The position numbers and the translations under genes were made by a program. The notes beneath the pieces are model-generated. The model was not told where the DNA came from. It saw only the letters and a list, made by a program, of their open reading frames with translations, and did not search any database. Shown here piece by piece: positions 1 to 2,061 of a stretch of 4,159 nucleotides of DNA. The stretch lies in NCBI RefSeq assembly GCF_003334255.1, contig NZ_QOWU01000110.1, one strand, 5' to 3'. Within the stretch, counting starts at the first letter, position 1. Each line of letters opens with the position of its first letter. Source of the stretch: Escherichia coli (GTDB lineage: Bacteria; Pseudomonadota; Gammaproteobacteria; Enterobacterales; Enterobacteriaceae).

Positions 1-2061
1 GCGGAACAGATGATCCGGCTGTTTTTCTGGTGTGTTGACGGCAGCAAAAAGCGGTGCCTCACGGGTTTTCAGATGAAACTCCATAAGTTCCGGCGCAGGT
101 GATATGTGGCTGTCTGCATCGTGATTTACGGCAACACCATACCCTGCATACCGTAACCCCTTATCGGTCAGTGCACTGATGACCAGCTGGCTGTTATCGG
201 CTGAGGGAACGGCAAACGCGGGATACAGCGTACCATTAAGCCGGACAACACCGCCCAGAGAGTCATCCACGCCCATGACCAGCAAAAGCTGAAGCTGGCG
301 GGTTTCCCGGTCGACAGAACTCATTACCGGCATCAGCGTCGGTAGCAGACGTCCCTGCGTAAAATCCACCTTCCTTGCTGCCAGTGATGGCATGGCTGGC
401 TGGCGGTCTTCTCCAAGACAGAAAGACTCCGGCCATGTCTTCGGCTGGCGGAGATTGCGGGTATATTGCGGCCATGTCTGGCAAACCTGCGTCAGAAGTT
501 GCTCAAAGGTCGCAGAGGAATAAACACGTTGCAGTGGTGGATGTTGACCGATTTCGCTTCGGTCACAGATATAACCACTCCTGTCACGCATTAAATCAAC
601 ACGCTCAAAGATTCTGGTGCGGTATTTCTCCAGCTCGTTCCCCCAGAGCGTGTATTCTCCGTTCCGGTTGTGAAGCAGAAGGTAACAGGTCATTTCCCCG
701 TTACCAGGCATGGGGGCCTCGCCATACCCCGTAACGACTGCGCTCAGTACCCCTGAATCCATAACGGCATTGTCATTTTTCCTGAGCTGTTCCGCTCGTC
801 GCTCCGCGCGACTACGTTCTGTATCCTCCTGCTCCTTCCGGCGCAATTCCTCTTCACGTTTAAGCAACTGGACTCTGAGAGCTGCAAGGCCGGATGCCCC
901 CCACTGCTGCCACTGTTTTTCAAATGCCGTCTGACTCGCGGGAATGTCCTGTTTCTCCACCTTCCGGTAATGCTGTCGCAATTTTTCCATTTGCTGGCTC
1001 AGCGACTGGATTTTTCCCTGTTCGCTACGGTATTCCGGTGCCGCCCATTGCATCAGGGGAATACGGGAAAAACCGGACGAAAACGGCGATGATTTTTTCA
1101 GGCTGGCAGCATGGCTCATCGCTTCCTTTCGTTCGGTGTTCAGCTCTTCCCAGCGTCTGCGCGTCGCCTGCATATCTGCCATCATCGACATGGCATTACT
1201 GGTGAGTTTCCATGCCGCATTACTGTCCTTCGGCAACGCTTCGATGATGTCACGTAGTGTGTACGAAGTTGCGTTGTCAGGAAGCACGATATTCAGAAGG
1301 TCAGCCACACGGCGGGCAGGCTCTGTCAGCCCGCTGTTTCTGAGTTCGGTACGGGAAATCTGTATTTCCAGGTTAAGTCTGTTAATCAGACGATTCTGTT
1401 CGCCGCGTTCTGTTTCGATACCGCGTGTTTCCATCGCACAGGCAGACTTTCCGAGGTGAATACCAGGCGTTTTCTCAAGCCCCTGTCGCTCGTATGAACG
1501 ATGGTCTATCTCTTCCTGATAACCGGCGTTCGCCAGTGCCCTGTTCGCATGGTCAGCCCATGATGCACGCCACGTCTCGGCATGTGTCCGGTCGTTCCAG
1601 TCCCTGACCTTTCCACCGAATCCAGCAGGTCCGACAGCTCTCGTGGTCAGCATGATGTGCGCATGGGGATTTGTTTTATCCATGTGATGGAACGCCACAT
1701 CAGCAATCATGCCCTGACTGACAAAGTTTTCTCTGACAAAGGCGAGAACGGTTTCCCGTGCGGCATCCTGCGGTAGTTCGCGGGGGATGGCGAGTTCAAT
1801 TTCCCGCGCAAGTTGTGAGTTCTTCCGGCGTTCGGCCTTCTCAACGGCATTCCAGAGTTCGGCACGGTTCGTACACCAGGCAGGGGCTGTCGCGGGAGTC
1901 AGAATCACAGCTTCAGCCACACCGCTTTTGCGGGTGTAGTCGTGAGTCAGTCCGGTACGCTCATCAAGCATCAGTGAACCGGAACGATAGGCAGCAGAAG
2001 CAACGGCGCTGTAGCCGCTGTTTCTGGAGATGATTTTCATGCTGAGATGATAAATCGCCAT
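1..2061 (-). CDS. mobA: MOBQ-family conjugative relaxase MobA, N-terminal 687 codons; the ORF runs off the window start and continues at 4082..3984 on the circle
   Basis: Hand translation of the minus strand from ATG at 2061..2059 gives MAIYHLSMKIISRNSGYSAVASAAYRSGSLMLDERTGLTHDYTRKSGV, with Tyr at residue 25 as in RSF1010 MobA. Further in are a histidine-rich motif HHMDKTNPHAHIMLTTR and WADHANRALANAGYQEEIDHRSYERQGLEKTPGIHLG, which closely parallels the RSF1010 MobA segment WADHANRALERAGHDARIDHRTLEAQGIERLPGVHLG (quoted from memory). I checked every in-frame plus-strand triplet from 1 to 2061 and found no TTA, CTA or TCA, so there is no stop on the minus strand. A second in-frame ATG at 2040 is less likely because the MAIYHLS start is the conserved family N-terminus. 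The SD is weak (AAGG/ACGG 5-14 nt upstream). Confidence 0.9.
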   Translation of the reverse strand, partial: MAIYHLSMKIISRNSGYSAVASAAYRSGSLMLDERTGLTHDYTRKSGVAEAVILTPATAPAWCTNRAELWNAVEKAERRKNSQLAREIELAIPRELPQDAARETVLAFVRENFVSQGMIADVAFHHMDKTNPHAHIMLTTRAVGPAGFGGKVRDWNDRTHAETWRASWADHANRALANAGYQEEIDHRSYERQGLEKTPGIHLGKSACAMETRGIETERGEQNRLINRLNLEIQISRTELRNSGLTEPARRVADLLNIVLPDNATSYTLRDIIEALPKDSNAAWKLTSNAMSMMADMQATRRRWEELNTERKEAMSHAASLKKSSPFSSGFSRIPLMQWAAPEYRSEQGKIQSLSQQMEKLRQHYRKVEKQDIPASQTAFEKQWQQWGASGLAALRVQLLKREEELRRKEQEDTERSRAERRAEQLRKNDNAVMDSGVLSAVVTGYGEAPMPGNGEMTCYLLLHNRNGEYTLWGNELEKYRTRIFERVDLMRDRSGYICDRSEIGQHPPLQRVYSSATFEQLLTQVCQTWPQYTRNLRQPKTWPESFCLGEDRQPAMPSLAARKVDFTQGRLLPTLMPVMSSVDRETRQLQLLLVMGVDDSLGGVVRLNGTLYPAFAVPSADNSQLVISALTDKGLRYAGYGVAVNHDADSHISPAPELMEFHLKTREAPLFAAVNTPEKQPDHLFR

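Follow-up and report, generated by a model that had tools for sequence, protein, structure and literature searches.

A relaxase gene cut in two by linearisation of a small mobilizable plasmid, and the Sog-like module at its C-terminus

The window (the whole 4,159-nt stretch of Escherichia coli DNA analysed here) ends in bases 4083..4159 that exactly repeat bases 1..77, so that the circle itself measures 4082 bp and the further 77 bp are an overlap of its ends, an artefact of linearisation. Over these 4082 bp it is 100% identical to the E. coli plasmid NZ_LR890408.1 and 99.9% identical at the DNA level to pSE11-6. A PLSDB search returned 600 records that match the window, 570 of them typed as mobilizable, and MOBQ was the type of the plasmid records inspected; NZ_LR890408.1 and NC_011411.1 carry annotations for mobQ, mobC and rep. 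We are therefore nearly certain that the window holds a complete mobilizable plasmid, cryptic and of the MOBQ41 group (pIGWZ12/pSE11-6 type), in which the minus-strand frame 2061..1 joined to 4082..3984 is the relaxase gene mobA/mobQ. The features are as follows.

1..2061, minus strand: mobQ/mobA, codons 1-687 (start ATG 2059-2061; stop-free translation; RefSeq CDS WP_001029343.1; Pfam and NCBIfam matches)
3984..4082, minus strand: mobQ, codons 688-719 and stop (3984-3986), contiguous with base 1 in circular translation (2160-nt CDS annotated in NZ_LR890408.1 and NC_011411.1)
1342..2061, minus strand: HUH-type MOBQ relaxase domain, aa 1-240 (family models, PDB alignments, catalytic residues)
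1987-1989, minus strand: Tyr25, in ASAAYRSG
1801-1803 and 1795-1797, minus strand: Glu87 and Glu89
1687-1689, 1663-1665 and 1657-1659, minus strand: His125, His133 and His135, in HHMDKTNPHAH
748..1341, minus strand: central region, aa 241-438, free of family matches, charged and repetitive (EELRRKEQEDTERSRAERRAEQLRK), with a 4-codon indel between relatives
1..747, minus strand: Sog-like C-terminal module, aa 439-687, running on to aa 698 in 4050-4082 (BLASTP against SogL)
375..2033, plus strand: seven overlapping ORFs of 60-119 aa, judged non-coding and unannotated in any record inspected
2062..2239, no strand assigned: oriT, the 178-bp mobQ-mobC intergenic region (length and position as in the experimentally delimited MOBQ4 oriT, PMC6856555)
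2106..2146, plus strand: oriT hairpin (inner arms 2112-2117/2131-2136, outer arms 2106-2111/2141-2146)
2138..2150, plus strand: nic core TAAGTGCGCACTT
2240..2494, plus strand: mobC, relaxase accessory protein of 84 aa (RefSeq WP_000091745.1), divergent from mobQ
3845..3863, minus strand: terminator-like hairpin with T-run, some 120 nt past the mobQ stop (consensus scan only)
4083..4159, no strand assigned: 77-bp terminal overlap (exact terminal match; close relatives are all 4082-bp circular records)

The backbone is that of a small MOBQ41-type plasmid, with an iteron-type replicon, mobA, a divergent mobC and the 178-bp oriT. Rep (233 aa) matches RepM and RepE models, iterons lie at 2834-2928 and a DnaA-box-like TTATCCACA was read from the sequence at 2735-2743; the assignment of the MOBQ41 replicon to Rep_3 is taken from PMC6856555, whose MOBQ4 family listing includes pSE11-6 as a MOBQ41 member. 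WP_001029343.1 is the relaxase given for pSE11-6 in the supplementary table of Garcillan-Barcia et al. 2019. Protein and plasmid are the same as in pSE11-6, pIGWZ12 and pE2022_4 (100% or 99.9% DNA identity, 4082 bp), as are the gene order (rep, mobQ, oriT, mobC), the oriT length and the catalytic residues; nothing of substance sets the window apart, which is linearised at another place and carries the 77-bp overlap. The plasmid and its relaxase gene are thus already known and characterised, and the gene is biologically ordinary. The published MOBQ41 backbone has only four genes, one of them a 'hypothetical protein' (PMC6856555), and a search for this fourth gene outside rep, mobQ and mobC found no convincingly conserved ORF. 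The sole candidate, a 53-aa minus-strand ORF (2533-2694), is still open in two relatives and has lost its start in one. Rfam, run on the whole window at gathering thresholds, gave no match.

Read from 2061 on the reverse strand, the sequence is stop-free through base 1 (687 codons), and on the circle the frame wraps to 4082->3984 and closes at the stop 3984..3986, giving 719 aa and 2160 nt including the stop; RefSeq names the same 2160-nt CDS mobQ in identical plasmids. The earlier note, made from the letters alone, had claimed an intact 719-aa relaxase that was absent from the list of ORFs, and translation of the reverse complement of the circularised sequence gave exactly that, in one uninterrupted frame. 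Its explanation, that the ORF has no downstream stop inside the window, holds for the linear reading, but the stop does lie within the window and is reached by circularising only. As the list leaves out ORFs that run off a source end, mobQ is missing from it for the sole reason that the circle had been opened within the gene.

In 300 first-order Markov simulations the longest stop-free run averaged 156 codons and never exceeded 355; here it spans 754. Substitutions between mobQ and an 89%-identical relative fall 44/46/135 by minus-frame codon position (chi-square p=2e-16), and the gene is intact in six diverged relatives (715-739 aa). The window does carry a terminal repeat, from which one might suspect that the long ORF is an assembly artefact of duplicated ends; this has practically no probability left and is already refuted by over 60 complete and independent circular records (at least 99% identity, many exactly 4082 bp) with the same CDS, uninterrupted by the frameshift or stop that the earlier note had proposed to look for. 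We regard the locus as a calibration case for genome scans, in which linearisation hid an intact and functionally important gene and its place was taken by antisense shadow ORFs; such gene loss is avoided if small replicons are circularised ahead of ORF calling.

Opposite mobQ, the plus strand has exactly seven ORFs that reach 60 aa (375-734, 710-934, 894-1205, 1136-1459, 1425-1607, 1582-1776 and 1758-2033), and we judge them, in agreement with the earlier note, to be antisense shadows of the relaxase gene. NCBIfam and PHROGs searches with all seven gave nothing significant, and annotation is lacking in every record inspected. Substitutions track the wobble positions of the minus frame, and in 375-734 they cluster at that ORF's own codon position 2. 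The 894 ORF loses its start in three relatives (ATG>ATT), the 1425 ORF loses its own (GTG>ACT), and two more gain premature stops (the 1136 ORF in relative L004, the 1582 ORF in relative L003). That some of the seven are real genes antisense to the relaxase gene would find support in 375-734 and 710-934, both still open in all four close relatives, although at 89-98% identity a frame that is still open says little. Furthermore, 710-934 and 1136-1459 share their wobble positions with mobQ, so that the codon-position test cannot separate these two from it, and 710-934 is rejected on the absence of homology and annotation only. Against such genes stand the lost starts, the gained stops, the substitution pattern of 375-734, the lack of family matches and a published backbone of just four genes (PMC6856555), and we consider their existence highly improbable.

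The N-terminal ~240 aa of MobQ constitute a HUH-type MOBQ relaxase, as shown by homology or published family experiment. Pfam MobA_MobL (PF03389) matches residues 18-213 over the model's full length (E=1.1e-70), and NCBIfam MobQ (NF041496; cutoff 200) matches over model positions 1-197 of 197 with 262.6 bits. The solved MOBQ relaxases align from residue 2 (NES 4HT4, E=1e-26; MobA 2NS6, E=1e-9) with Tyr25 and the HxH in register, the tyrosine (motif I) pairing with Tyr25 of MobA and position 25 of NES, and motif II (E87/E89) and motif III (H125/H133/H135) are likewise present and aligned. The checks that the earlier note proposed, by translation, family models and reference relaxases, thus all had a positive outcome, and the Tyr25 and histidine-rich motif that it had read by hand translation are present. 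PMC6856555 names the same tyrosine, glutamates and histidines for MOBQ4 relaxases; by homology or published family experiment, the three histidines with Glu87/89 hold the metal and Tyr25 is the nucleophile. For the MOBQ4 family, mobilisation and a preferential action of the relaxase in cis are described in the literature.

RSF1010/R1162 MobA (MOBQ1; 2NS6) and pLW1043 NES (4HT4) belong to a common fold family with MobQ, with the N-terminal AIYH, Tyr25, the HxDx..HxH and the oriT core TAAGTGCGC all as in the window, at about 30% protein identity or less. Closer are the MOBQ42 relaxases of ColE2-like/Col156 colicin plasmids (for example ColE9-J, NZ_CP104487 and NZ_CP071715), in which the relaxase domain is 84-85% identical, the oriT nearly identical, mobC related and the C-terminal part homologous. 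Their C-terminal two-thirds, however, are just 37-43% identical to the window's MobQ, and these plasmids combine a ColE2-type replicon with colicin operons, whereas the window has Rep_3 with iterons. The central region (aa 241-438) matched nothing in Pfam or PHROGs, is 36-38% identical to MOBQ42 and shows a 12-nt gap in relatives; it is probably a linker.

The spacer between mobQ and mobC has been shown by experiment to be the oriT of the MOBQ4 family (PMC6856555). In the window it contains the invariant TAAGTGCGC core, and the region averages 94% column identity across 7 plasmids. The nic core adjoining mobQ matches 12 of the 13 positions of the MOBQ oriT consensus core TAAGTGCGCCCTY (as quoted in PMC3832669) and is invariant in 7/7 aligned plasmids. 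The hairpin folds as DNA at -12.4 kcal/mol (z=-1.5, not significant alone), and the single compensatory change found (T-A to A-T, in CP098951 alone), with 98.8% of cells paired and 68/500 shuffles equal, supports it weakly. The nick is predicted between G2145 and C2146, a placement that we carry over from RSF1010 and pLW1043 on the assumption that it is conserved; it would lie in the invariant TAAGTGCG|C core of the plus strand, just 3' of the hairpin, so that transfer into the recipient would begin with mobC and end with mobQ. That the core GTGCGCAC is palindromic counts against settling which strand is nicked. A second nic-like site (GTGCG|CCCT, minus strand, 2100-2116) is a less likely nick site, as it agrees with the consensus at 9/13 positions, where the plus-strand core agrees at 12/13, and one MOBQ42 plasmid has it in altered form. 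Scans of the oriT region for sigma-70 promoters and terminators found nothing.

The relaxase acts on this 178-bp oriT, with MobC enhancing transfer (by homology or published family experiment). MobC is intact in relatives and had no significant Pfam or NCBIfam match, while PHROGs gave only a weak match to a family of unknown function; PMC6856555 reports that mobC deletion lowers mobilisation.

The C-terminal ~260 aa of MobQ match SogL 946-1230 with 45% identity (BLASTP, E=5e-68). As in a Sog-type module, for which there is no Pfam entry, the match with the final ~285 aa of SogL/SogS is significant over the full length and lies at the C-terminus; PHROGs returned nothing for the C-terminal 475 aa of MobQ. 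The homologous part comprises MobQ 439-698 and the C-terminal ~285 aa of SogL/SogS (IncI1 R64, ColIb-P9) and of Pri-like LPD7 proteins from other MPF_I plasmids. Structure models (AF2, pLDDT 85 for the module) suggest the same two-domain beta architecture in MobQ and SogL/SogS; the AFDB neighbours are SogL/SogS and LPD7 primases, with Foldseek E about 1e-30 to SogS and primase models. Profile comparison (hhalign) linked the module to an LPD7 protein that a Klebsiella plasmid of type MPF_I encodes within its tra cluster (probability 100%, E=1e-46) and showed no similarity to the C-terminus of IncP R751 TraC (probability 0.3%). By tblastn the module occurs on more than 1800 conjugative plasmids; only 80 representatives were found in 1.84e9 proteins, always C-terminal and always in MobQ relaxases or Sog-like proteins. 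A core of 80 aa (MobQ 604-683) retains 85-88% protein identity to SogL with only 47-60% at third codon positions, which argues for a constraint common to both proteins.

The homologues are named 'DNA primase' in databases, and the sole published comment on the Sog-MobA homology is one sentence on 'low homology to SogL primases' (PMC6856555), from which the 719-aa protein could be taken for a relaxase-primase fusion like RSF1010 MobA/RepB', its C-terminus priming the complementary strand in the recipient. This is most improbable: the homology is confined to SogL 946-1230, the Sog Toprim (266-365) and LPD7 (~774-861) fall outside it, and Pfam detects no Toprim or primase domain in MobQ, which leaves the protein outside the MobA/RepB' type of fusion. 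In Sog, the DUF5710, Toprim and LPD7 domains precede the module and there is no relaxase domain, while in MobQ the relaxase domain stands in their place. RSF1010 MobA carries the RepB' primase and works in trans, in contrast to the window's MobQ with its Sog-like non-primase C-terminus and preferential action in cis. What is new here is the mapping to the non-primase C-terminus of Sog, the finding that the module is confined to Sog-like proteins and MobQ relaxases, and a functional reading, which we infer.

We reason that the C-terminal ~260 aa would copy the module with which the helper-encoded Sog ends, and that they most likely couple the relaxase, once bound to DNA, to the secretion apparatus of MPF_I helpers and/or bind the transferred strand. 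The module may thus dock the relaxase on the helper's secretion system and, tentatively (we would not give it an even chance), the MPF_I machine (Dot/Icm-like, type IVB) would accept the relaxase-DNA complex of a small parasitic plasmid by way of the helper's own substrate-recognition module. Two carrier plasmids were checked for the module and both are typed MPF_I. An unlikely but weightier alternative than priming is that the module is mainly ssDNA-binding or protective in the recipient, or mediates cis preference, and is no secretion or docking signal. The extreme C-terminal position, which is that expected of substrates of type IVB systems, counts against ssDNA binding alone, as do the MPF_I type of both carriers and the MPF_I identity of the best helpers; moreover, ssDNA-binding and docking roles are not mutually exclusive. 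Docking, for its part, has against it that the IncP plasmid RP4 still mobilises MOBQ4 (as published), the module not being found in the related IncP R751 primase.

According to the literature, the plasmid depends on a helper conjugative plasmid, the best helpers being MPF_I (IncI1 R64, IncL/M pCTX-M3), and Sog is exported to recipients by the I1 conjugation system. Enterobacteriaceae, clinical and commensal, very commonly carry MOBQ41 plasmids of this kind as cryptic passengers (600 PLSDB matches), and the Sog-like C-terminal module is the one point that merits specialist attention. If docking by this module is true, it would be the reason why MPF_I plasmids are the best helpers, would give the helper specificity of a mobilizable plasmid a concrete molecular basis, and would define a transferable secretion/docking domain for type IVB conjugation systems.

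The last 77 bases of the window (4083..4159) copy bases 1..77 exactly, which identifies it as a 4082-bp circle written past its own origin; features that span base 1 are split in this linear form. From position 2061 the reverse-strand frame is stop-free for 687 codons to base 1, and on the circle it crosses the junction and stays open over 4082..3987 until a stop at 3984..3986; this is mobQ (mobA), a 2160-nt CDS encoding 719 aa. The longest stop-free run reaches 754 codons, whereas in 300 first-order Markov simulations of the plasmid it averaged 156 and never exceeded 355. An earlier note had reported this 719-aa minus-strand ORF as absent from the ORF track, with Tyr25, a histidine-rich motif and seven plus-strand ORFs across 375..2033 on the opposite strand. 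All of this is confirmed: translating the circularised reverse complement yields the 719 aa, Tyr25 and the histidine motif (HHMDKTNPHAH) lie where they had been placed, the plus-strand ORFs that reach 60 aa number exactly seven, and mobQ is missing from the track because the ORF lister leaves out ORFs running off the end of the source. For a genome scan the lesson is one of method: the ends of a circular replicon should be joined before ORFs are called.

The interpretation attached to that observation (an intact MOBQ relaxase gene, to be checked against MobA_MobL models and MOBQ reference relaxases) is supported. Pfam MobA_MobL matches MobQ residues 18-213 over the full model (E=1.1e-70), and the NCBIfam MobQ model scores 262.6 bits (curated cutoff 200). 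From residue 2 onwards the protein aligns with the solved MOBQ relaxase domain of NES (4HT4, E=1e-26) and with MobA of R1162 (2NS6, E=1e-9), Tyr25 and the HxH motif being in register in both. All six catalytic residues named for MOBQ4 (Y25, E87/E89, H125/H133/H135; PMC6856555) are present, and the relaxase portion is confined to residues 1 to about 240.

NZ_LR890408.1, an E. coli plasmid, matches the 4082-bp unit at 100% identity, and many more match it at 99.9%, pSE11-6 (NC_011411.1) among them. PLSDB holds 600 matching records (570 typed mobilizable), which with few exceptions come from Escherichia, Salmonella and Shigella, and those inspected are typed MOBQ. RefSeq annotates three genes on matching records (replication initiator, mobC and mobQ), the mobQ CDS (2160 nt, WP_001029343.1) occupying the position of the window's minus-strand ORF. 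The MOBQ4 family and its subgroup MOBQ41 were defined in PMC6856555, where pSE11-6 is listed with WP_001029343.1; the window's relaxase is the identical protein and shows all the defining features of MOBQ41 that can be read from sequence. The gene is ordinary, already annotated and characterised, and the finding is already known; what is added to published work is only the exact position of a Sog-like C-terminal module and the range of proteins that carry it. Proteins 93-100% identical to this E. coli plasmid relaxase are filed (database match P0004 and AFDB entries) under Gardnerella, Bacteroides, Lactobacillus, Bifidobacterium and Myxococcus, most likely through contamination or mis-binning of a small multicopy plasmid in other assemblies; about 15 copies per chromosome are given for pIGWZ12 (PMC6856555).

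The reading of the seven plus-strand ORFs as antisense shadows of mobQ, also put forward in the earlier note, is well supported. Against the 89%-identical relative CP098951, the minus frame shows 44, 46 and 135 substitutions at codon positions 1, 2 and 3 respectively (chi-square p=2e-16), a third-position bias also found in closer relatives, and mobQ is intact in six diverged relatives (715-739 aa). In plus-strand frames whose wobble differs from that of mobQ, substitutions cluster where mobQ third positions fall. Start codons are lost from the 894 ORF (ATG, three relatives) and the 1425 ORF (GTG, one relative), premature stops arise in the 1136 and 1582 ORFs of relatives, none of the seven has a significant match in NCBIfam or PHROG, and none is annotated in the records inspected. 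The 710-934 and 1136-1459 ORFs share mobQ's wobble positions, so that the codon-position test is uninformative for both; since the 710-934 frame also stays open (in four close relatives), its rejection rests on missing homology and annotation. The charged linker of MobQ (window about 710-934) carries a 12-nt in-frame indel among relatives (715 vs 719 aa), and in one Salmonella plasmid the protein, 721 aa long, differs slightly in its C-terminal tail (...RGWSQGM).

The mobilisation and replication features, together with the C-terminal module, are as follows.

2062..2239, mobQ-mobC spacer, 178 bp, matching in length and position the experimentally shown MOBQ4 oriT
2112-2117/2131-2136, inner arms of the oriT hairpin, extendable to 2106-2111/2141-2146, directly 5' of the core
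2735-2743, DnaA-box-like TTATCCACA, upstream of rep, read from sequence
2757-2801, three 13-14-nt AT-rich repeats containing GATC, upstream of rep
2834-2928, iteron copies GGTAATATGATTTAAGGT, upstream of rep
3748-3769, plus strand, terminator-like hairpin and T-run between rep and mobQ
3845-3863, minus strand, terminator-like hairpin and T-run between rep and mobQ
3917-3946, three tandem 10-nt repeats TCGA(T/A/C)GAACA between the convergent rep and mobQ ends, shortly past the mobQ stop
1-747 plus 4050-4082, minus strand, Sog-like module (MobQ aa 439-698; counterpart at 5001-5855 of record L009)

Across seven MOBQ41 and MOBQ42 spacers the mean identity is 94% and GTATAAGTGCGCACTTCGTGAT is invariant; splitting the MOBQ4 oriT fragment at nucleotide 70/71 abolishes its function (PMC6856555). 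The core TAAGTGCGCACTT (2138-2150, plus strand) agrees at 12/13 positions with the MOBQ consensus core TAAGTGCGCCCTY, as quoted in PMC3832669. The hairpin is not significant by folding energy alone (z=-1.5), and its covariation is weak (one relative with a compensatory T-A to A-T change, matched by 68/500 shuffles). By analogy with RSF1010 and pLW1043, the predicted nick would lie between G2145 and C2146 on the plus strand. A second nic-like site (GTGCG|CCCT, minus strand, 2100-2116) fits more poorly and is altered in one MOBQ42 plasmid. As the nic core GTGCGCAC is palindromic and the second sequence (GTGCG|CCCTGC) lies inverted across the same hairpin (2100-2152), the oriT looks near-symmetric, with two candidate nick sites. 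The divergent 84-aa gene at 2240-2494 bears the RefSeq product name 'relaxase accessory protein MobC', has no significant match in Pfam or NCBIfam, and is lengthened to 96 aa in CP098951 by a 36-nt insertion.

The origin features at 2735-2928 are consistent with the published pIGWZ12 origin, and the two terminator-like hairpins are convergent, one per gene (rep and mobQ). In pEC931_8 (L011) the mob module is 95-100% identical to the window and the iteron region plus most of rep (2801-3600) only 44-74%, which looks as if the replicon or its iteron specificity had been exchanged within a MOBQ41 backbone, possibly an incompatibility variant. The GC-rich interval 2500-2600, which separates mobC from the origin, keeps a conservation of 95-98% also in the 89%-identical relative, above its flanking genes. 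It holds no convincingly conserved ORF (a 53-aa minus-strand ORF at 2533-2694 is open in two relatives and loses its start in one), and could be either the 'hypothetical protein' of the published four-gene MOBQ41 backbone (PMC6856555), unannotated here, or a cis-acting site.

Relatives among Col156 (ColE2-type) colicin plasmids are about 85% identical to the window in relaxase domain, oriT and mobC but only 37-43% identical in the C-terminal parts of their relaxases, and mobQ is therefore mosaic. For this C-terminal domain, PMC6856555 (and its preprint, in the same sentence) states only a 'low homology to SogL primases'. We find the similarity strong and sharply localised: MobQ 439-698 matches residues 946-1230 (of 1254) of the IncI1 protein SogL at 45% identity (E=5e-68). 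Within an 80-aa core (MobQ 604-683) the proteins are 85-88% identical and third codon positions only 47-60%, which points to an old split with strong constraint common to both proteins and not to a recent DNA exchange. No Pfam model covers the shared region, and the Pfam domains of SogL (DUF5710 8-59, Toprim 266-365, LPD7 about 774-861) lie outside it. A relaxase-primase fusion of the RSF1010 type was considered and rejected: MobQ differs from that architecture in having no primase domain in Pfam, and the match excludes Sog's Toprim and LPD7.

An exhaustive search of 1.84 billion representatives returned only 80 matches to the module, which stands at the extreme C-terminus of every full-length one, either MobQ relaxases or Sog-like proteins of ~1065-1420 aa (some starting, as SogL does, with a DUF5710-like N-terminus). 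By hhalign it also ends the LPD7 protein that a Klebsiella MPF_I plasmid encodes in its tra cluster (probability 100%, E=1e-46); the SogL-bearing plasmid is likewise typed MPF_I, so that both carrier plasmids checked are MPF_I. The AlphaFold model (16-sequence alignment) is confident (mean pLDDT 85, pTM 0.67), with a predicted small beta sub-domain, a larger beta-barrel-like domain and a terminal helix.

Judging by homology or published experiments on the MOBQ4 family, MobQ is an HUH relaxase using Tyr25 on the adjoining 178-bp oriT, preferentially in cis; MobC assists it, and transfer needs a helper plasmid. The most efficient MOBQ4 helpers are the MPF_I plasmids R64drd11 and pCTX-M3. Because RP4 mobilises MOBQ4 plasmids too (less efficiently), and R751, a related IncP plasmid, has a primase without the module (not found in TraC by hhalign, probability 0.3%), the module cannot be the only route. 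The region shared with MobQ falls in the stretch that SogL and SogS have in common, and the I1 system exports the two Sog polypeptides to the recipient (summarised in PMC6112013). Most economically, then, the end of MobQ would be a copy of the C-terminal module of a helper substrate, and would dock the relaxase on the MPF_I apparatus and/or bind the transferred strand. We propose this helper-substrate mimicry as a hypothesis, at somewhat under an even chance.
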